Shown here: in pieces, positions 5,866-17,926 of the stretch
How positions within the stretch are numbered: the stretch's first letter is position 1
How the letters are laid out: every line of letters starts with the position of its first letter
DNA from: an uncultured Desulfocapsaceae bacterium
GTDB taxonomy: Bacteria > Desulfobacterota > Desulfobulbia > Desulfobulbales > Desulfocapsaceae
Length of the DNA: 64,000 bases
Assembly (NCBI GenBank): GCA_964583415.1
Contig: CAZOWJ010000002.1
Span: 35,365 to 99,364 of the forward strand
Reading direction: 5' to 3'
Made by a program: the position numbers and the translations under genes
The notes under the pieces: model-generated
The model's input: the letters and a program-made list of their open reading frames with translations, nothing else
Databases searched by the model: none
Told to the model about the DNA's origin: nothing

Positions 5866-6207
5866 TCAGAGAAATTCTAATATTTGGTCTAGAGCTGCTT
5901 GTTGATCTCGGGATAATTTTTCACAAAACTTAGCACCTAGAATTACTTCATACATAGAAGAAGTGTCCTGTCCCTCATTAGTAGCTAACCAGATCTTTTC
6001 CAATGGAATATTAAAAATATGTAAACCAGCATTGTTGAAGATGTCGACATTCAAGGTATTTGGAATTTTGCTGCCAGAGGTGCATCCAAAAGCAATGCCC
6101 TCTGAACTTAGATTGAAAATTTGACAAATACTCTCCCGGTTTACGATGAAAGTATCGACAATCTTGTGCCTTAGATGCTTTCTGGATTCACGGTAATCTA
6201 GTGCCAT
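5866..6207 (-). CDS. PilZ-domain (c-di-GMP binding) protein
   Basis: RESRKHLRH (RxxxR-type) followed by NLSSEGIAF (D/NxSxxG) fits PilZ. I chose the start at MALDYRE. The longer ORF to 6288 runs into repeat copy B. Confidence 0.6.
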   Translation of the reverse strand: MALDYRESRKHLRHKIVDTFIVNRESICQIFNLSSEGIAFGCTSGSKIPNTLNVDIFNNAGLHIFNIPLEKIWLATNEGQDTSSMYEVILGAKFCEKLSRDQQAALDQILEFL

Positions 6208-7976: not shown

Positions 7977-10388
7977 TTATTGAGGGTTAAGCGGGTTTTC
8001 GAGCTTGTATCGTTCTATTTTCCTGCGTAGTGTGTCCTTTGATATGCCGAGTTCCCGGCAGGTAATCATCTTTTTCCATTTGTTGCGCTCAAGAGAACTG
8101 GCTATCGCCTGCTGTTCAATCTGATCGAGGGTCGCCCCAGCTTCCATAGCAGCGAAGTTGGTATGGTCTCTATGAGAATCGGGCAGAAAAGACTCTGGAA
8201 GATGATCTTCTTGAATAAATCCAGCGCTACAGAGGATGAATCCATATTCTATGATGTTTTCAAGTTCTCTGATGTTCCCCGGAAATGAATGAAGCATAAG
8301 CTTTTTTAATACAGCATCGCTGACACCGACAATGTCTTTTTGCTTTTCAGCCCTGAATTTATCAACAAAGTGATCGATCAGCAGTGGTATGTCTTCCTTG
8401 CGGTCGCGCAGCGGGGGCAGCGTGATATCGACAACCTTGAGACGATAATAGAGATCATCCCTGAATAGACCATCGTCGACAAGTTGTTTCAGATCACGAT
8501 TGGTTGCGGCTATGACCCGGACATCAGCCTTGATCGATTCGTTTGAGCCCAGTGGTTCATAAACCCGTTCTTCAAGTACGCGGAGAAGTTTAACTTGAAG
8601 GGAGTGGGGTATGTCTCCGATTTCGTCAAGAAAAATTGTGCCGCCCTCAGCTGCCGCAAAACGGCCCTCCCGGTCTTTTCTGGCATCGGTGAAAGCTCCT
8701 GACCGGTAGCCGAAGAGTTCGGATTCCAGCAACGTTTCAGGAATTGCGCCACAGTTAACGGAGAGAAAGGGCTGGTCTTTACGAGCGGAGGCGCTGACAA
8801 TTGCATCAGCCATAATTCCTTTTCCTGTACCGCTTTCCCCAAGGATAAGTACGGTGCTGTCACTGGTGGCGATATCGGGGAGGATCTGGAAAAATCGCTG
8901 CATGATATTGCTTTTACTTATGATTTCTTTGAAAGTGTAGCGTTGCATCAGTTGTTTACGCAACGATTCCATGACGGTCAGGTCCCGGAATGTTTCAACC
9001 CCGCCAACGACATTGCCAACCACATCAACCAGCGGTGACGCACTGATACTGATCGGTTTGCTTTTGCCTTCTTTGTCTTCGATCATTATCGAGCGGTTGG
9101 CAACTGGTCTTCCGGTATAAAGGCTTTCTGCGATCGCACAGTTTTTGCCGCAGATTGAAGAGTGGAAAACGTCACTGCAGAAACTGCCGATAGCAGCCTC
9201 CCGCTCCCATCCGGTGATGATTTCAGCAGCCATATTAAAAGAGGTAATTTGCCAGTTCCGGTCAACGGTAAACACACCATCGGCGATTGAATCGAGAATC
9301 AATTTGTTCTGCAGTGGCGCTGTATTGTCCCTGAAGGTCTGTACACAGCCGATGGCCCGTTTTTTGTCATCAAGCATTGGAGTGATCGAAACGACAATCG
9401 GGATATTGAAGCCATCCTTATCGGTTACAAAACCTTCCTGATCGATAATGTTGCACGGTTCTCCCGGGTCTGATGCGGTAATCGGGCAAGCAGATACCCC
9501 ATCAGCTGCGAAGAACAGTTCATCGCATGATCGACTGACAACATCATCTTCGAGCCAGCCTGTTATCCGTTCTGCACCTGCATTAAAAGATGTGATAATG
9601 CCCTTGCCATCAAAAGTGACGACCCCGTCGGCAACGGCATTTATTATGATATCACTCCTCACTGATTCACTGATGTCGCGAAAGGTCTCAACACCGCCAA
9701 TTACACGGTTTTCACTGTCAATAAGCGGTGCAGCACTGACGCTGACCGGAAAGGGCAGGCCGTTTTTTCGATAAATATATACATCACGGTCATGATAAAC
9801 ATTGGTGTTGTTCATAATACATGATGAGATTGCACATGATGACAGGCAGATATTTGATTGGAAAATCGTCTTACATGGCTTGCCGAGAACCTCCTCCTGT
9901 TTCCAGCCTGTCATTTTCTCGGCTGCTGAGTTAAAGGAGGTGATTTTCATCTCACCATCGACAGTAAATACTCCTTCCGCAATGGAGTCAAGTGCCAGTG
10001 CCCGCGGGGTTACGACCTCTGAGCGGTCAACCAGGCCGATATAAAATCCAAGGATATTTGCATCTGAATCAGGCAGGACGACAATACGGACTTTCAGGTT
10101 GTCTATTGACTGCTGGCGTGAACCGGCAAGGAAAAACTGCTCCGTTTTTATTGATTCAAAAGGTTTTCTCAGTCTTTCTGTCAAAGGGGCAAAACGGCTG
10201 TCTGCTTCTATCAGCGTTACCAGATGTTTTCCCAGAATATCCTCTTTACGGTGGCCAAGTGTTTGCGCTGCCCTGTTATTACAGGAATTTATTATACAGG
10301 ATCGATCGATGGTGATAAAACCGCTGTCAGGTTCGTGCAACCGTTTGTTGGGGACTGCCATGATGAACTCCACGTAGTGATAACCCAT
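7977..10388 (-). CDS. Sigma-54-dependent transcriptional activator with four N-terminal PAS domains
   Basis: AAA+ core GESGTGKG, a GAFTDA loop variant, DEIGDI, and a C-terminal Fis-type HTH (ITCRELGISKDTLRRKIERY). Three near-repeat PAS units each carry ITSFN.AAE..TGW. Confidence 0.9.
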   Translation of the reverse strand: MGYHYVEFIMAVPNKRLHEPDSGFITIDRSCIINSCNNRAAQTLGHRKEDILGKHLVTLIEADSRFAPLTERLRKPFESIKTEQFFLAGSRQQSIDNLKVRIVVLPDSDANILGFYIGLVDRSEVVTPRALALDSIAEGVFTVDGEMKITSFNSAAEKMTGWKQEEVLGKPCKTIFQSNICLSSCAISSCIMNNTNVYHDRDVYIYRKNGLPFPVSVSAAPLIDSENRVIGGVETFRDISESVRSDIIINAVADGVVTFDGKGIITSFNAGAERITGWLEDDVVSRSCDELFFAADGVSACPITASDPGEPCNIIDQEGFVTDKDGFNIPIVVSITPMLDDKKRAIGCVQTFRDNTAPLQNKLILDSIADGVFTVDRNWQITSFNMAAEIITGWEREAAIGSFCSDVFHSSICGKNCAIAESLYTGRPVANRSIMIEDKEGKSKPISISASPLVDVVGNVVGGVETFRDLTVMESLRKQLMQRYTFKEIISKSNIMQRFFQILPDIATSDSTVLILGESGTGKGIMADAIVSASARKDQPFLSVNCGAIPETLLESELFGYRSGAFTDARKDREGRFAAAEGGTIFLDEIGDIPHSLQVKLLRVLEERVYEPLGSNESIKADVRVIAATNRDLKQLVDDGLFRDDLYYRLKVVDITLPPLRDRKEDIPLLIDHFVDKFRAEKQKDIVGVSDAVLKKLMLHSFPGNIRELENIIEYGFILCSAGFIQEDHLPESFLPDSHRDHTNFAAMEAGATLDQIEQQAIASSLERNKWKKMITCRELGISKDTLRRKIERYKLENPLNPQ

Positions 10389-10636: not shown

Positions 10637-11767
10637 ATGTCTTCAAGCGCAGAAAAACAGCCTCAGAACGATATATTGACCACCGATGGGCACTCCGTTC
10701 ATGCCGTTGCTGGAATTGAACTCTTTCACTCAATTCAGGATCCCGTCCTTATAGTAACACCTCCCGGAATAATTATTGATGCCAACAAGGCAACCTTGCT
10801 GGCAGCCGGCAAAACTCGTGATGAGATCATAGGCAAGGGGATCTGCGAAATCATACACGGCGGCCGCTGGCCTCATATCAAGTGTCCTCTGGAGGAATTT
10901 CTGCTTACCTGCACCGGCAGAAACGAAGATACTCGCCTTCCCGGCCTCGGCGGAGAATATCATCTGACCATCACTCCGCTGGTAGATCTGGATGAGTCTG
11001 TTCAGTCAATTCTACTGCAGGCGCGTAGGCTTACCAGTGAGGAGTCAAGTAAAGTTGAGACTATTCGAACGGCCCAACTGGCTGCCATCGGCGAACTCGC
11101 AGCAGGTGTCGCCCACGAGGTCAATAACCCCATCAATGGTATCATTAATTATGCCCAGTTGTTGCTCGATGACGCTGAGAAGGGCACGCTCCAGGCCGAA
11201 TTGCTTGGAAGAATAGTCCAGGAGGGCGATCGGATTGCAACGATCATATACAGTCTGCTCTCCTTTGCCCGTGAAAATGAAAATGAGCTCAAGGAAATCG
11301 AATTTAAAGAGGTGATTCATTCCTGTATCAATCTGGTGGATCACCAGTTAAAAAGTGAAGGAATTCAACTGGAACTGCATCTTTCAGAGCGCAGCTGCAT
11401 AATTGTCGGTAACTATATGCAGCTCCAGCAGGTTATTCTCAATACCATCAACAACAGCAGGTATGCACTCAATGAACGCTACCCTGAGAGTTCAGCCGAC
11501 AAACGGCTTCGGATAAGTTGTGAACCTGTCCAGGCAGAAGAGGGAAGTGAGATAAAGGTCATTATTAGGGATTTTGGTACTGGGATTCCCCAGGGAATCC
11601 TCGACAAGCTCTTTGAGCCGTTCTTTACCAGTAAACCTGCCGGCCAGGGGACCGGCCTTGGCTTGAGCATCAGCTACGGCATCATTAAGAATCACGGTGG
11701 CAGGCTGTCAGTTGATTCGATTCTTAATAAATATACCGATATGATAATTACCATACCGGAGGCTTAA
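10637..11767 (+). CDS. Soluble PAS-domain sensor histidine kinase
   Basis: There is no TM segment. It has a PAS domain, the H-box [25 protein letters not shown], an N-box [10 protein letters not shown], and G-boxes RDFGTGIP and GTGLGLS. Confidence 0.85.
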
Positions 11768-11782
11768 AAAATTACCGAACCT

Positions 11783-13549
11783 ATGCTCGATCGGAATATC
11801 CTGATAGTAGATGATGAGGAGAGTTTACGGTTGACGTTTGAAATGTTTCTCAAGCGAGAGGGATATAGCAACGTACAGACCGCAGCCACCGTTGAAGAGG
11901 CCCTTACGGCAATAAGCAAAGGCCGGTTTGATCTCATCATCAGTGATATCGTTCTGGGCGGAGAAAAAGGCACCGAGCTTCTGCGTCATATACGACAAAC
12001 AGGTATTTCCTGTCCCGTTGTCATGGTTACCGGTTTTCCAAACCTGGAGACCGCTTCTGAAGCTGTTCGGCTTGGCGCTTTTGACTACATTTCCAAACCG
12101 GTAAATAAGGAGAAGCTTCTGAAGCTGGTTCGGCAAGCGCTGGCCTTCTGGGAGCTCGAGCTTGAAAAACGCTCACTTATTATACAGAACGAGAAGTATC
12201 AGCATTACCTGGAGGCAATTTTCAGCTCGGTTGAAGATGCCATTATAGCAGTTGATAACCGCTGTAACATTCTCAAGCTCAACCGGACAGCAGAGTCGCT
12301 GCTTGATGAATTTCGTGATGACAGTGACAGCGATGGAAAGGTTTTACCGGGCGAGATAGGCAGCGCCTGTATGAAAGACGCACTGCTGGTCATCGAGAAG
12401 GGCAGTATTGTCAGGGAACATATCATTGAATGTGTCAATGTGGACGGCGCCTCAAAAATGTTTTCGATTAATGCGGCACCACTTGATATAGATGATGAAA
12501 TTTCTAACGGTGCGGTAATTGTTGTGCGTGACGTAACGAGGGCAGAGGAACAGAATGTGCCGTCACAGAGGGAACAATTCCATGGCTTTGTCGGCGCCAG
12601 CCAGGTTATGCAGTCTATCTATCGACTCATTGAAAATGTTGGTAAGGTTGAAACTGCCGTTTTGATAGCCGGCGAATCGGGAACAGGCAAGGAACTGGCC
12701 GCAGAGGCGCTGCACGCAGAAAGTTCTCGAAGTACCATGCCCCTTGTAAAGGTTGACTGTGGAGCGTTACCTGAGGAATTGCTGGAAAGTGAGCTTTTCG
12801 GTCACCGTAAGGGTGCTTTTACCGGCGCTGATCGTGACAGACCTGGCAGATTGCTGCAGGCTGACAAGGGAACACTGTTACTTGACGAAATTGGTGATAT
12901 AACCCATCGTATGCAATTACGGCTTCTTCGCTTTCTGCAGGAGATGACCTTTACCCCCGTTGGAATGGATACTCCGGTCAGTGTTGATGTCCGTGTGATT
13001 GCTGCAACCAATGTCAACCTACGGGAAAAAGTTCGAGAGGGTGGCTTCCGCGAAGATCTTTATTATCGACTCAAAGTTGTTGAAATCGTTCTCCCCCCCC
13101 TACGTGATAGAAAAAAGTGCCTGCCAATACTCATCAACCATTTTCTTACTTTTTTCTCACAAAAACATGCCAGGCATGTTCATTCGATCTCTGATCGGGC
13201 CATGGATGCAATGGTGTCTTACTCTTGGCCCGGTAACGTCAGAGAACTAAAACATATAATGGAGCGGGGCGTTGTGCTCTGCCTTGGCAATAACCTGTTG
13301 CTGGAACATCTCCCGGATGAAATACTTGAATATAATAGTCCACCAGACCCTGCGCTAGAACGATCTGGGAATGTACCGCAATCACACCATCTCAGCCACG
13401 ATCAGATATATTCAGCACAGCAGAACGAACTTATTGAAGCTCTCAAACAGGCTGGCGGCAACAAGTCCAGGGCTGCTCAAATTCTCGATATAGACCGGTC
13501 GACACTGTATCGCCGGCTTCGTCGATTTAAGATCACAACCGGACCGTAG
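11783..13549 (+). CDS. NtrC-family sigma-54-dependent response regulator (REC-PAS-AAA+-HTH)
   Basis: REC domain (ILIVDDE..DLIISD..), GESGTGKE, an intact GAFTGA, and a C-terminal HTH (AAQILDIDRSTLYRRLRRF). It starts 16 nt after the kinase gene. Confidence 0.9.
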   Translation: MLDRNILIVDDEESLRLTFEMFLKREGYSNVQTAATVEEALTAISKGRFDLIISDIVLGGEKGTELLRHIRQTGISCPVVMVTGFPNLETASEAVRLGAFDYISKPVNKEKLLKLVRQALAFWELELEKRSLIIQNEKYQHYLEAIFSSVEDAIIAVDNRCNILKLNRTAESLLDEFRDDSDSDGKVLPGEIGSACMKDALLVIEKGSIVREHIIECVNVDGASKMFSINAAPLDIDDEISNGAVIVVRDVTRAEEQNVPSQREQFHGFVGASQVMQSIYRLIENVGKVETAVLIAGESGTGKELAAEALHAESSRSTMPLVKVDCGALPEELLESELFGHRKGAFTGADRDRPGRLLQADKGTLLLDEIGDITHRMQLRLLRFLQEMTFTPVGMDTPVSVDVRVIAATNVNLREKVREGGFREDLYYRLKVVEIVLPPLRDRKKCLPILINHFLTFFSQKHARHVHSISDRAMDAMVSYSWPGNVRELKHIMERGVVLCLGNNLLLEHLPDEILEYNSPPDPALERSGNVPQSHHLSHDQIYSAQQNELIEALKQAGGNKSRAAQILDIDRSTLYRRLRRFKITTGP

Positions 13550-13566
13550 TGTTGCGTTAGTGTTGC

Positions 13567-13610
13567 GACCAGGTGTCGCGGTGGAACAGTTTCGCGACAC
13601 CTGGTCTTTT
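13567..13610 (+). terminator. Rho-independent terminator after the response regulator
   Basis: GACCAGGTGTCGCG / CGCGACACCTGGTC forms a 14-bp perfect stem, followed by TTTT. Confidence 0.7.
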
Positions 13611-13741
13611 ACGATTGCGCCATCATCGTTATCCCCTTCCTGTCAATATGTACTTTCAACCACTCTAGTAATAAAACATTATATCGTTTTATCAATATCT
13701 TATATGGGGTGGCATTTTTTATACCCAGTTTTACGACAATG

Positions 13742-13757
13742 TGGCATGCGTGATGCA
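13742..13757 (+). promoter_or_regulatory. Candidate sigma-54 (-24/-12) promoter
   Basis: TGGCAT-GCGTG-ATGCA compared with consensus TGGCAC-N5-TTGCW. The GG and GC dinucleotides have the canonical spacing. It lies ~55 nt upstream of ATG 13811, directly downstream of a sigma-54 activator gene. Confidence 0.5.
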
Positions 13758-13810
13758 ATGTGGTAGTGCAAGAGACAACAACACTCCAATAACTCAAATT
13801 GAGGGCCACC

Positions 13811-14023
13811 ATGAAAACAGCAATCCTTAAGAAGACAAGAACTGAGACGAGAACAGTTGGGAACGTTGACGAACAGGTATACAAGGTTGGTATAGCTGTT
13901 GTTGGTTCATGCTCTCTGGCGATCGGCATCTGGGCAACCGTAGCTCTGGTAAGCGGGATGGTTGCAAGCGGTGGGCCGGGCGCACTCATCAGTGACTGGT
14001 TCAGGGCAGTTATTGGCTCTTAA
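13811..14023 (+). CDS. Small hydrophobic protein, paralog 1 (unknown family)
   Basis: 70 aa from ATG 13811 (RBS GAGGG). It has a basic N-terminus, then VGIAVVGSCSLAIGIWATVALVSGMVASGGPGALISDWFRAVIGS. It shares K.G...G.W...GM.ASGGP....WF.AV.G with the next ORF. Confidence 0.55.
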   Translation: MKTAILKKTRTETRTVGNVDEQVYKVGIAVVGSCSLAIGIWATVALVSGMVASGGPGALISDWFRAVIGS

Positions 14024-14052
14024 TACGATAATAAACAAAACGAGGCACTGTC

Positions 14053-14271
14053 ATGATAGAAAGAACGAAAGTACAAGAGAATACAAAGGCAACCATATCC
14101 ACCGGTACCGATGCTGCCACCGAGGTCTCAAAAATTGGTGTTATGACAATAGCTGCATTTGGTGCTGTAGTTGGCCTCTGGTCAGTTGCCTGCATAATCG
14201 GAGGCATGGCAGCAAGTGGCGGCCCTCTGGCTTTCGTCGGTGCCTGGTTTAATGCGGTGACGGGAATGTAG
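14053..14271 (+). CDS. Small hydrophobic protein, paralog 2 (unknown family)
   Basis: 72 aa with RBS GAGG. The sequence is ...KIGVMTIAAFGAVVGLWSVACIIGGMAASGGPLAFVGAWFNAVTGM. The similarity to paralog 1 is most evident in the protein alignment. Confidence 0.6.
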   Translation: MIERTKVQENTKATISTGTDAATEVSKIGVMTIAAFGAVVGLWSVACIIGGMAASGGPLAFVGAWFNAVTGM

Positions 14272-14298
14272 TGATCGTTTAAGTAGAGTAATTTTTTT

Positions 14299-14343
14299 TA
14301 AAAAAGGACCACGAGCTCATCTGCTCAGTGGTCCTTTTTTTTT
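14299..14343 (+). terminator. Strong rho-independent terminator after the small-protein pair
   Basis: AAAAAAGGACCAC-loop-GTGGTCC followed by T9. Confidence 0.8.
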
Positions 14344-14459
14344 GTAATTATCCTGAATTATGTAATAAACGTTTACTTTAAAATATGATTAAATAGGTGT
14401 ATAACATGGTTGTTGGGAGAGAACGAAGACAGAGCTGATTTCGGCTGCAAGGGATACGT

Positions 14460-16286
14460 ATGGCAATTCTGGTCAGAAATTTACTGATCTATTTCATTAT
14501 CTGTTTCGCTTTTTTTATCGCAGGGTTGATTTATCATCTCGAAACGAGATTGGTACAGAAGGATTATTCTGACCTGCTGAAAGATATCGATAAGGGCATT
14601 GTCAGTGAAGTTGTCATCCAACAGGATATCGTTGAGGTTACCACAAAATCAGGAAACAGGTACACAACTGTTGTCCAGGAGCCGGCCTATCTTGCCACCA
14701 GCTGGCATGGCAGTAATATACGCATCTCATACAGAAAAGATTACGCTGCGTTCGTTTTCTACGGGATAAGTCTCGTTTTTCTTACCTCTCTGTTCCTCGT
14801 TTCATGGCTTTCGTTGAAAGTAAAAGAAAATGAGTCACAGAGTTCAGCTTTTGCAAATGACAAACTCATTTCACCGGGAACAGAGCTCAAAAAAATCACC
14901 TTCAATGATGTTGCCGGTATTCCTGAAGCAAAGGAGGAATTACGCGAAATTGTCGGCTTTCTGAAAAATCCTGAGCAATACAGAGAAATCGGCGCCACGA
15001 CCCCGAAAGGTGTACTGCTGCAGGGCCCTCCCGGAACCGGAAAAACGCTGCTTGCCCGAGCGATTGCTGGAGAAGCCGGTGTTCCTTTCTATTCCTTCAG
15101 TGGCTCTGATTTTGTAGAGATGTTTGTCGGGGTTGGGGCATCGCGGGTACGGGATCTTTTCAGCGAGGCAAAAAAAAATGCACCCTGCATTATTTTCATT
15201 GATGAGATTGATGCTGTCGGCGCCAGTAGAAAGACCTCCGCATCGGATGGCAATGATGAGAGAGGGCAGACCCTGAACGCCTTGCTGGTGGAAATGGATG
15301 GTTTCAGTCCATCGGACAATATTGTTGTTCTTGCCGCAACCAACCGGCCAGATATCCTTGATCGGGCCCTGAAGCGCTCGGGTCGTTTTGATCGGCAGAT
15401 AACCATCGTGCCGCCCGATGTAAAAGGAAGAAAGCAGATACTCGATGTTCATTGCCGGACCATTAAAATGAACCCCGATGTTGATCTTGAAGAAATTGCC
15501 ACATTGACCTCAGGGTTTACCGGTGCGGAGTTGGCAAGCCTGGTAAATGAAGCGGCGCTGCTGGCTGCCCGCCATAAGAAAAGCAGTGTAGAGCAGGATG
15601 ATTTTGATCTGGCCCACGATCGCATTCTTCTGGGTGTGGAACGCAAGGGACTGGTTATTTTGGAAAAAGATAAGCGGGTCCTCGCTTTTCACGAGGCTGG
15701 CCATGCGATTGTTGCCAAGTTGCTGCCCGACTCGGATCCAGTTCATAAAATAACCATCATTCCGCGCGGGCGGGCTCTTGGACAGACTCAGCAGCTACCC
15801 ATTAATGACCGACAGGCTTATAGCAGAGAGTATCTCAAGAACAGGATTACCACATTGATGGGAGGGCGTGCTGCAGAAGAGCTTGTCTTTGGGTTGCAGA
15901 CAACCGGCGGCCAGTCCGATATACAGCAGGCCACGGCAATAGCCACTAATATGGTCTGTAAGTGGGGCATGAGCAAGGTTCTTGGACCTCAGGTTTATAT
16001 TGTCGATGATGATGATTTTCTCGGCCCCTCCAACAGCAGACTTGCAATGGGCGCCCGGACAGAGGCCCAGATTGACCGGGAAATCAAGGTTCTGTTGGAT
16101 GAGTGCTATCGGGAGGCTGTTGCCATCCTCGGCAACGAGCGGCTGTTTCTATCAGTTCTTGCAGACATCCTTATGCAGGTGGAAACCATCGACAGTGAAG
16201 AGTTTGATATTATCTACTCTTGTTCCCTGAAGAAAAAGTATGAATTTGAAATGGATGAATCACCTGAAGCCTGCAAAATTACCTAG
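14460..16286 (+). CDS. ftsH: ATP-dependent zinc metalloprotease FtsH
   Basis: Two N-terminal TM segments, Walker A GPPGTGKT, Walker [12 protein letters not shown], and the zinc site HEAGHA. Confidence 0.9.
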
Positions 16287-16303: not shown

Positions 16304-17227
16304 ATGCTGAACTCTACTAAATCCATACTTTACATAAGCTTTTTTATTGTTGGAATATCCCTGTTTCTTGTCATTATCCTGGGAGCCCGGCAGTTCCAGA
16401 TGAACAGGGAGTATTCAGAGATTACCGTGCTGAGCGAAAGAACCCTCTTTGCCTTTGCAACATTACGGGAACAGATTACCGAATCGTTGATCAGCAGCGA
16501 CTATCAGTTGCTCAGAGGGGTTATCCCCGAGATCGAAGATTTAAACAATACCATTACCAGATTTTTCGATAGCGACATTATCCCCGGTGAATATAAACTC
16601 GCCCTGACTGACAGGATTGATCTTGCAGGACTTGTAATTGATTTAAGAAAAGTTGGATCGGAACAGGATGATCCAGAATCAGGTCTCAGGATTCAGCAGG
16701 ATCTGCGGGTAATTGGAGACAATCTCTTTAAAATCGACAGGGTGATCACCGGTCAGATCAGGAATTCTGTTGTCAGTTTTCAGCTCGGTATAATCGGTGC
16801 AATGGGACTGCTCATCAGTTGCACCAGTTTTATCCTTATCCTGTTATACCGAAAGACAATCGGTCCAATGTTTGATTTGTCCCGACAACTGAGCAGCAAT
16901 CCTGAGGAACATGGTCAGCTTGTCTGCAGCACTGAGGTGGCAACCGAGATCGTCGAGATAACAGAATCCATTAACCGGATAATTGCAGAACAACCATTGT
17001 CAAATGGAACTGATGGGTCCGGCAGTTATGAAGATCAGGAAACGATCTCAAGGACGATTAACGAGACCACAAACAATCTTAACGGCATAATCAATTATGC
17101 CCAGTTGCTATTGGAATCTGAATCACAGCTCTCTGAAGAACAGCAACGAATGCTCGAGAAGATCATTAGCAGCGGCGAGCGAATCGCGGATGGGTGGCAG
17201 AGGATAAGCCAACGGTTCAGCGGTTAA
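16304..17227 (+). CDS. Membrane sensor-like protein (TM-periplasmic domain-TM-linker) ending in a His-less DHp-like domain, with no ATPase domain
   Basis: It has TM helices near residues 10-28 and 160-182. The C-terminus [27 protein letters not shown]...MLEKIISSGERIADGW parallels the H-box helix pair of the kinase at 10637-11767, with Asn at the His position. The protein ends about 50 aa later. Confidence 0.7.
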   Translation: MLNSTKSILYISFFIVGISLFLVIILGARQFQMNREYSEITVLSERTLFAFATLREQITESLISSDYQLLRGVIPEIEDLNNTITRFFDSDIIPGEYKLALTDRIDLAGLVIDLRKVGSEQDDPESGLRIQQDLRVIGDNLFKIDRVITGQIRNSVVSFQLGIIGAMGLLISCTSFILILLYRKTIGPMFDLSRQLSSNPEEHGQLVCSTEVATEIVEITESINRIIAEQPLSNGTDGSGSYEDQETISRTINETTNNLNGIINYAQLLLESESQLSEEQQRMLEKIISSGERIADGWQRISQRFSG

Positions 17228-17403
17228 GCTCAGCTGTCTAATCTTTTTTCGTTCGTGCCTCAGTTACCATTAACCAAAACGTCCGGTAATATAATCTTCA
17301 GTGAGTTTATGGCCTGGGTGACATTATAACCAGCAACGGTGTCATCCACGTAATTGATGCTGTGATGCTTCCGTAATACATTACTTAGATTTAAAGTCTT
17401 TAA

Positions 17404-17440
17404 ACAAACGGGCCTTGATTTTAGAATCAGGCCCGTTTGT
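17404..17440. terminator. 12-bp perfect hairpin, a possible terminator (strand uncertain)
   Basis: ACAAACGGGCCT-13 nt-AGGCCCGTTTGT. Only weak T-runs flank it on either strand. Confidence 0.35.
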
Positions 17441-17525
17441 CTTTGGGGTATGGCTGTCTTCACTGCCCAATTGCAGCCAGCCTCTTCGGCATCGAATCTA
17501 TCAGATCAAAAGTATGGATTAACAC

Positions 17526-17680
17526 TGAACTGGAGAAATAATAAAAGAACATCTGGTATCAACCCGAAGCTGTTATTTTATGACCCAGTTCGAGGGAATT
17601 TACGCTACAGTTTGGAACGGTTGGTTTTGCAGGGTAGTGAGTATCGCTGTTGCTTTCATACAGGAGTGTACCCAGCTCCT
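17526..17680 (+). repeat. ~155-bp repeat, IS3-orfA-derived remnant (copy 1)
   Basis: About 80% identical to 21433-21586 (TGAACTGGAGAA.TAATAAAAGAACA..TGGTATCAAC.CGAA...GGTTGGTTTTGCAG...GTGTACCCA.CTCCT). Confidence 0.5.
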
Positions 17681-17926
17681 TCTTTTTTCTTGTTTGAAGA
17701 GTTAAATTCGATTAGACCTGCGTTAGAGTTGAAGGAAATAGCAGATGTTTCTTCCAAAAAGGCTGATGACTCCCTGGCAGGATACAACTCAATTACCGAC
17801 AATTTAAAATATCCGCTAATGGGAATTAGATAAACAATGGTTTCCATAAGCACAATCAAGTTTTCATCAAAATCCCTAGTACCTTGCATTTTAATCATAT
17901 TTTTCTAAGACAAGGAGAAAAACCTA

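Follow-up and report, generated by a model that had tools for sequence, protein, structure and literature searches.

The stretch analysed here (the window) comprises 64,000 nucleotides of an uncultured Desulfocapsaceae bacterium (contig CAZOWJ010000002.1, positions 35,365 to 99,364, forward strand). It carries two tandem paralogous genes, smA and smB, for hydrophobic proteins of about 70 amino acids (aa), which lie directly downstream of the genes for a histidine kinase (HK376) and a sigma-54 activator, or enhancer-binding protein (EBP588), and upstream of genes for an FtsH paralog (FtsH608) and a membrane sensor (p307). All coordinates and sequence features listed in a preliminary description of this locus, which was made from the sequence alone, were found to be present as given. 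The genes smA and smB are protein-coding and under strong purifying selection. Moreover, comparison with related loci strongly supports two further conclusions, namely that smA and smB would form a self-contained sigma-54 transcription unit, and that kinase, activator, small genes, FtsH and p307 would form one conserved module (Table 1).

The small genes and their protein family

The listing of open reading frames (ORFs) extends smA to a TTG at 13799, and the ATG at 13811 was taken as its start because the orthologs are 70 aa long. The protein pattern shared by the two genes, on which the preliminary description had based its argument for real and selected genes, was recovered as 31% identity over 68 residues (E-value 3e-14), and nine residues (W41, G49, M50, A52, G54, G55, P56, W63 and A66) are invariant in 25 A-type and B-type orthologs. 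The ratio of nonsynonymous to synonymous substitution rates (dN/dS) against orthologs is 0.02-0.15 for smA and smB, not near 1, with synonymous sites near saturation, and both are therefore selected protein-coding genes. Being short and unannotated, they might be taken for chance ORFs or for a non-coding feature, a reading which is ruled out by the conservation pattern and keeps a probability of practically nil: besides the dN/dS values, hundreds of homologs retain constant length and motifs, gene callers predict the ORFs in independent assemblies, and a comparison of 13300-14600 with Rfam returned sub-threshold noise only.

A word-indexed search found 51 clusters of homologs for smB and 90 for smA, of equal lengths and belonging to Desulfocapsaceae and Desulfofustis, and an exhaustive profile search extended the family to at least 241 clusters at 50% identity (E <= 1e-3), nearly all of 64-77 aa. 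Metagenomic homologs were sought by a degenerate DNA pattern, 29 of whose 71 matches were true family loci. Every database name for the homologs is 'hypothetical protein', and Pfam, NCBIfam and PADLOC gave nothing significant for the two proteins or for 29 members of the family, which agrees with the earlier view of an unrecognised family distinct from pilins, Flp, PspG and double-glycine precursors; pilin, Flp and double-glycine motifs are absent from the family profile. In addition, a PDB profile search and a Foldseek search with an AlphaFold2 (AF2) model of the small protein found no match, and the window holds no second copy of the family. The regulatory logic of the locus is standard; the module, the small-protein family, the enhancer motif described below and the combination of peptide, FtsH and histidine-less sensor have no annotation or description in the libraries and literature searched, including the sigma-54 regulome of Desulfovibrio vulgaris.

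The family profile, built on 139 non-redundant sequences, starts with a polar N-terminal region in which Thr alternates with Lys or Arg, followed by a semi-conserved E-V-S-K and by a hydrophobic helix whose small residues (G/A/S) are spaced i, i+4 and in which G40 and W42 are nearly invariant and Cys46 occurs in 63%. An S-G-G-P turn then leads into a short hydrophobic helix, L..L...WF.AV.G, and the chain ends at the almost invariant Gly of this helix or one hydrophobic residue beyond it; conservation peaks in the hydrophobic core and right at the C-terminal end. Counted to its last charged residue, the N-terminal tail measures 26 aa in the median (5-95% range 22-31), and the uncharged stretch 36 aa. 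The N-terminal region contains most of the Lys and Arg (mean 2.7 versus 0.7), suggesting an N-in orientation, and smA and smB are probably single-pass membrane proteins with a cytoplasmic tail. An AF2 model made with 52 sequences contains a helix from residue 3 to 53, a break at GGP and a helix from 56 to 68, with a predicted local distance difference test (pLDDT) score of 73, and both profile and model support the suggestion that the helix rich in small residues would suit tight helix packing.

Table 1. Positions of genes and regulatory features at the smA-smB locus, with the long family variants of two other loci (UAS, upstream activating sequence; IHF, integration host factor; TM, transmembrane; DHp, dimerization and histidine phosphotransfer; RBS, ribosome-binding site)
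Feature	Position	Strand	Description	Basis
EBP803	7977..10388	-	divergent multi-PAS, Cys-rich sigma-54 activator	
HK376	10637..11767	+	soluble PAS-HisKA-HATPase_c histidine kinase, phospho-acceptor H160	Pfam domains
EBP588	11783..13549	+	REC-PAS-AAA+ (Sigma54_activat, GAFTGA)-HTH_8, NtrC-type	Pfam and NCBIfam
Predicted enhancer (UAS)	13547..13612	.	TGTYGCG half-sites at 13550, 13561, 13574 (+) and 13593 (-)	
Inverted repeat ATAAAAC-N8-GTTTTAT	13671..13692	.	present, not conserved	
IHF-like site TATCAATATCTTA (WATCAANNNNTTR)	13690..13702	+	between enhancer and promoter	
Predicted sigma-54 -24/-12 promoter TGGCATGCGTGATGCA	13742-13757	+	GG-N10-GC spacing; predicted transcription start near 13768	
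smA	13811..14023	+	70-aa small membrane protein (probable), A-type paralog, RBS GAGGG	
smB	14053..14271	+	72-aa small membrane protein (probable), B-type paralog with conserved membrane Cys, RBS GAGG	
Intrinsic terminator	14300..14343	+	GGACCAC...GTGGTCC stem and T9; ends the sigma-54 unit	
Sigma-70-like promoter block of ftsH-p307	14372..14405	+	TTTAAA (14377-14382), 17-nt spacer, TATAAC (14400-14405)	
FtsH608	14460..16286	+	full FtsH paralog, two TM helices, Walker A/B, MFVG pore loop, HEAGH	
p307	16304..17227	+	307-aa membrane sensor: two TM helices around a helical periplasmic domain, HAMP-like segment, DHp-like hairpin	
95-98-aa long variants	L059:377-2173 and L076:10407-10802		second TM segment HIKGIEYL.CVAFFV.FP.FY	

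Regulation of smA-smB and of ftsH-p307

The predicted sigma-54 promoter TGGCATGCGTGATGCA is the sole strict TGGCAY-N6-TGCW match in the window, where 0.65 would be expected by chance; such a lone match is in itself unremarkable, and it is conservation that gives the element its significance. In every Desulfobulbales locus examined, the first small gene is preceded at 60-150 nt by a -24/-12 element, so that the element proposed at this position in the preliminary description has both the correct spacing and counterparts across related loci, and a relaxed form was found in 59 of 72 loci versus about 3% expected. Stand-alone arrays of family genes in unrelated GC-rich metagenomic contigs also carry such an element (TGGCACG-N4-CTGGCA) about 85 nt upstream, from which it appears that sigma-54 dependence is a trait of the whole small-protein family and not of this locus only.

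The activator EBP588 has a Sigma54_activat domain (E 3e-65) with a GAFTGA loop read in the translation, and is presumed to activate the small-gene promoter. The TGTYGCG motif occurs 11 times in the window, and four of these matches cluster at 13550-13599, directly after the EBP588 stop codon, including two copies of TAGTGTTGCG at 11-nt spacing; this array is likely to be the binding site of EBP588. Its conservation was read from an alignment of ten orthologous intergenic regions. In 52 loci, half-sites occupy the interval 130-205 nt upstream of the promoter TGG, usually as a series with 11-bp steps and then copies in inverted orientation, and their density at the UAS is 24.5 per kb versus 1.4 per kb elsewhere in the loci. 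GG/GC spacing, a conserved element, an activator with GAFTGA and a predicted upstream half-site array, which characterise the sigma-54 class, are all found here. The IHF-like site between enhancer and promoter is conserved in part only: it is placed at -51 to -55 from TGG in 11 loci and falls in the UAS-to-promoter interval in 13 of 52 loci versus 4.6% of shuffles.

Two features upstream of the promoter had been read differently before. The ATAAAAC-N8-GTTTTAT repeat exists, but it is not conserved in the orthologous intergenic regions, where the TGTYGCG array is conserved instead; it was rejected as a candidate enhancer and is probably not one. As for the terminator that was thought to bound the unit upstream, a strong hairpin is indeed present at 13567-13606 (14-bp stem, -36 kcal/mol, z-score -4.4, followed by TCTTTT) and may also terminate the EBP gene, with the correction that it overlaps the conserved half-site array. 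The downstream terminator stands as described (-25.8 kcal/mol, z-score -5.1), and in most loci the last small gene likewise has a terminator behind it, the stem sequences being different.

The genes for FtsH608 and p307 do not belong to the sigma-54 mini-operon; they lie behind this terminator with a conserved sigma-70-like promoter of their own. Downstream of the terminator, the conserved block CTTTAAAAT.TG.TTAAATAG.TGTATAA fits TTTAAA-N17-TATAAC, and an alignment of nine loci contains invariant CTTT.AA.T.T and TGTATAA columns, from which we infer the sigma-70-like promoter. Given the terminator and this conserved block, ftsH and p307 most likely make up a transcription unit of their own, and such a promoter suggests that its expression may be constitutive. 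A sigma-54 promoter for ftsH or for flanking NrfD operons was also considered and rejected, being absent in most loci, with L040 and L076 as exceptions (L numbers denote individual loci). In L040 (Desulfosediminicola flagellatus NZ_CP050698.1), near-identical sigma-54 promoters (TGGTATATAAT.TGC.) stand at 5902 and 6751 before the small genes and ftsH; this locus has no adjacent kinase and activator pair, and the regulator must therefore act from elsewhere in the genome.

The conserved module, its FtsH paralog and the histidine-less sensor

Synteny was established by tblastn of the window proteins against 45 genome and metagenome loci, and neighbours were counted in de-duplicated loci with enough flank. 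The module recurs across the order Desulfobulbales. The recurrent gene order is EBP803 (divergent), kinase, activator, smA, smB, FtsH and p307, which is found throughout Desulfocapsaceae, Desulfofustis, Desulfopila, Desulforhopalus, Desulfoprunum and related metagenome-assembled genomes. More distant members, including Desulfocapsa sulfexigens UWK_03024, possess the kinase, the activator, three to five small genes, FtsH and a protein of about 300 aa, and the number of small genes in the module ranges from 1 to 5 across loci. The kinase and the sigma-54 activator, whose domains were borne out by Pfam and NCBIfam, thus belong to the same recurrent module as the FtsH and the pseudo-kinase that had been named as context. 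Homologs of the small genes co-occur with sigma-54 activators, with the EBP gene directly 5' of the array in 44 of 54 loci, as well as with FtsH (33 of 42 assessable loci), and the sensor of about 300 aa is present in 35 of the 42.

The synteny of HK376 is kept in about 40 loci, and its PAS domain contains a motif, C70-x3-H74-x5-H80-x2-C83, which is invariant across 40 orthologs and may represent a metal or redox cofactor site. FtsH608 scores 703 with TIGR01241 against a cut-off of 600 and has Peptidase_M41 and AAA domains, the remaining FtsH motifs being read from the translation. FtsH stays adjacent to the small genes outside the core clade in L119 and L128, and the window contains no second FtsH. 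Since two complete modules, each with activator, small genes, FtsH and a sensor of about 300 aa, stand head to tail on one contig (L050:1-11643), this FtsH is a module-specific paralog. In PADLOC, FtsH matched generic AAA+ models only, and the small proteins and p307 had no match.

The only domain match of p307 is HisKA, at 26.0 bits against a cut-off of 26.9. The chain ends after the DHp hairpin and has no HATPase_c domain, and Asn replaces the phospho-acceptor His of the H-box in 42 of 42 sequences. Without H-box His and ATPase domain, p307 resembles a degenerate sensor kinase no longer capable of being phosphorylated. Its DHp region is 47% identical to that of HK376 over 43 residues, including a shared 11-mer, and the fold of a single-sequence AF2 model matches a NarQ sensor fragment weakly (Foldseek E ~0.5). 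A non-phosphorylatable sensor suggests that p307 might regulate HK376 by heteromeric DHp contact, by analogy with the DHp-DHp control of GacS by RetS and with histidine pseudokinases (PMC8498467, PMC9491836), which p307 resembles in keeping a DHp-like hairpin similar to that of the neighbouring true kinase and from which it differs in lacking any ATPase domain and in carrying Asn for His throughout the clade. In L076:560-10802, a 468-aa sensor keeps the H-box His and has a C-terminal extension, and this sensor may reflect the ancestral state of p307.

A possible link to respiratory complexes, and competing explanations

Regulation of the small genes is well supported by these comparisons, and function can be inferred from sequence and context. 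We tentatively favour, at a level somewhat short of probable, a combined model in which smA and smB are inducible small membrane subunits that are turned over by the linked FtsH and tied to NrfD-type complexes, with p307 modulating HK376. HK376 would phosphorylate EBP588, which would then bind the 11-bp-phased TGTYGCG array some 150-190 nt upstream of the promoter and, possibly with an IHF bend, activate TGGCAT-N5-ATGCA, and the strong terminator would isolate the smA-smB unit from ftsH-p307. The two proteins would be the inducible and abundant output of the module and would pack, as small hydrophobic subunits or partners, against larger membrane proteins. NrfD-type quinone-reactive respiratory complexes, whose genes show physical linkage to the module in several lineages other than that of the window, would be their most likely partners. 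Respiratory and photosynthetic subunits that remain unassembled are cleared by FtsH-family proteases, and Chiba et al. reportedly found in 2000 that FtsH needs a cytosolic tail of about 20 residues to begin degrading a membrane protein. The linked FtsH paralog could accordingly remove unassembled smA and smB, starting at N-terminal tails of at least 20 residues, and p307 could report periplasmic or membrane state to HK376 via its kinase-like DHp domain.

Genes of the NrfD family join the module in several lineages, with four distinct arrangements. In Desulfocapsa-type loci the module lies between an NrfC/cytochrome c7/NrfD set and a cytochrome c7/NrfD/NrfC set, and in L044 (Desulfogranum mediterraneum), L058 and L059 a lone 396-aa NrfD gene stands directly 3' of the gene for the ~300-aa sensor. 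In L076, a sigma-54 promoter is followed by ftsH, cytochrome c3, nrfC (with a twin-arginine translocation signal), nrfD and the sensor gene, and a second enhancer and promoter precede the small genes. The locus L128:784-7805, from a different lineage, has the order PilS-like 6-TM kinase, NosL, two family genes, FtsH and a NapC/NirT-type multihaem cytochrome, with no sigma-54 element detected. This context of NrfD, NrfC and cytochromes would point to respiratory membrane complexes at least as much as to envelope stress. The preliminary description had proposed an envelope or membrane-stress module; sigma-54-controlled genes, FtsH and a sensor do stand together in one module, but nothing tested points to stress specifically.

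In the long variants of L059 and L076 (95-98 aa), the family helix (hhalign probability 94%, E 1e-7) is fused to another conserved TM segment. Those of L059 alternate with members of 65 aa in a further sigma-54-driven array, located 5' of ftsH. A precomputed annotation weakly flags the second TM segment of the 98-aa L059 variant as PF28260 (DVU_0533), and DVU0533 is HmcD; smA and smB had no PF28260 match in scans with a library copy that may not hold the model. HmcD has been described as 'a hydrophobic peptide' of the Hmc complex (PMC10924467). HmcD-type peptides of the Desulfovibrio vulgaris Hmc complex resemble the present family as small hydrophobic peptides encoded with NrfC, NrfD and multihaem cytochrome genes in Desulfobacterota (PMC10924467), whereas the lineage of the window has no nearby NrfD gene and the small family is under dedicated sigma-54 and two-component control.

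Several observations weigh against the combined model. No NrfD or NrfC gene lies within at least 6 kb of the module in the window or in some 40 loci of its type, the rest of the window has no NrfD gene either, and NrfD co-occurrence by strict count amounts to 5 of 29 loci. FtsH is missing from the module in four loci (L035, L037, L039 and L043), many metagenomic arrays stand alone among housekeeping genes, and the window contains no other TGTYGCG cluster or sigma-54 promoter that would tie further genes to the regulon. Moreover, the topology of the small proteins was derived from charge counts alone, the monomer AF2 model is of moderate confidence and has no structural neighbour, and the PF28260 flag on the long variants was not reproduced by scans, in which the model was possibly absent from the library copy. 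Every functional step of the model is read from sequence and gene context.

Generic membrane or envelope stress offers a different explanation, according to which smA and smB would be effectors comparable to those of the phage shock protein (Psp) response: the two-component system would sense membrane damage or loss of proton-motive force, the small proteins would stabilise the bilayer, and FtsH would serve quality control. In the Psp response, PspF, sigma-54 and IHF likewise drive small inner-membrane proteins (pspABCDE and pspG), IHF being only possible at the present locus. FtsH is a membrane quality-control protease and degrades PspC. The core module contains no enzyme or transporter, and respiratory genes are not nearby in most loci, which also fits a stress response. 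However, smA and smB have no sequence relation to PspA, B, C, D or G, to any other Psp protein or to any stress family, the module has no PspA-like effector, and EBP588 carries REC and PAS domains and has its own kinase, unlike the PspA-inhibited PspF. Such a function, which we regard as possible if unlikely, would further leave unexplained the repeated and architecture-independent adjacency to NrfD, NrfC and cytochrome genes. Alternatively, the small proteins might be pure regulators, which modulate the linked FtsH or serve it as decoy substrates and/or bind p307 as feedback ligands, in a circuit that measures or tunes FtsH capacity. MgrB acting on PhoQ would be a parallel for the latter, and MgtR/MgtS, SpoVM, lambda CIII and YccA are short membrane or amphipathic proteins coupled to FtsH. 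The small genes co-occur with FtsH and p307 (33-35 of 42 loci), the length of the N-terminal tail fits the FtsH initiation rule, ftsH-p307 forms a separate and presumably constitutive operon with its sigma-70-like promoter, and the small genes are the sole detectable activator target within the window. Nevertheless, the protease here is a dedicated paralog adjoining the small genes, there is no homology to those modulators, and the coupling is read from synteny only. There are 1-5 gene copies, the strong promoter and terminator design is what an abundant structural product might be expected to have, family members with their sigma-54 promoter are also found at sites that have no FtsH or p307 close by, and a circuit whose only output is itself seems implausible, which makes a purely regulatory role quite unlikely.

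A kinase and an NtrC-type regulator before a sigma-54-driven short hydrophobic gene with a terminator after it is also the layout of PilS-PilR-pilA (e.g., in Pseudomonas and Geobacter), and the tandem paralogous genes would suit exported or processed peptides, either pilin-like or Flp-like filament subunits or precursors of bacteriocins or ribosomally synthesised and post-translationally modified peptides. This is very improbable, as smA and smB have no class III (prepilin), Flp or double-glycine leader, no N-methylation motif (N_methyl) and no other Pfam match, and as more than 80 loci contain no prepilin peptidase, pilus ATPase, ABC exporter or modification enzyme. In addition, conservation is highest in the core and C-terminus and not in a cleavable leader, and the partners in the module are an FtsH paralog and a histidine-less sensor, with no linked pilus machinery.

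Returning to the combined model, it might be widened to an unrecognised signalling and assembly system of the whole order, with sigma-54-dependent peptides as accessory subunits of NrfD complexes, FtsH policing their stoichiometry and p307 signalling by heteromeric DHp contact. We consider this unlikely in its full extent; if true, protease capacity, respiratory-complex assembly and transcription would be linked in one circuit. Desulfobulbales include sulfur disproportionators and relatives of cable bacteria, whose membrane electron-transfer machinery is partly understood, and a true NrfD link would provide missing small subunits and an assembly and quality-control layer for widespread respiratory complexes. 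The present work defines a new small-protein family with a near-universal (predicted) sigma-54 promoter and a conserved six-gene module, and supplies an enhancer motif, a predicted transcription start, a candidate pair of FtsH substrates and a candidate natural 'DHp-only' kinase regulator. The module can be tested in the cultured Desulfocapsa sulfexigens DSM 10523, Desulfosediminicola flagellatus IMCC35005, Desulfogranum mediterraneum DSM 13871 and Desulfopila aestuarii DSM 18488.

Neighbouring genes and a distant family member

The divergent activator gene EBP803 is a syntenic neighbour of the module in most Desulfocapsaceae and Desulfobulbaceae loci, with 57-100% identity across loci, and no second sigma-54 promoter that could be its target was found in the window. 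The protein contains four PAS domains, several with Cys clusters (e.g., C-x8-C-x3-C-x4-C), which are reminiscent of Fe-S or redox-sensing PAS domains such as those of OrpR. The orp operons of Desulfovibrio vulgaris (PMC8359166) similarly combine sigma-54, IHF and an activator with Cys-containing PAS sensors and serve a small dedicated gene set, whereas their target genes are unrelated to those of the present locus, where the presumed activator of the small genes belongs to a phosphorelay. On the other side of the module, the interval 17228-17926, of about 700 bp between p307 and a CBS-domain gene, contains only short overlapping ORFs of 127 aa (+) and 80 aa (-), and no feature could be assigned to it.

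A distant 64-aa member of the small-protein family (E 2e-7 with a profile made without that sequence) was found in an AT-rich contig, L054:762-8956, where a sigma-54 promoter was not seen. Downstream of this gene stand more than 10 tandem paralogs of about 280 aa, which all start with MRLKQFINE and have no Pfam matches, and this context may be phage-like.

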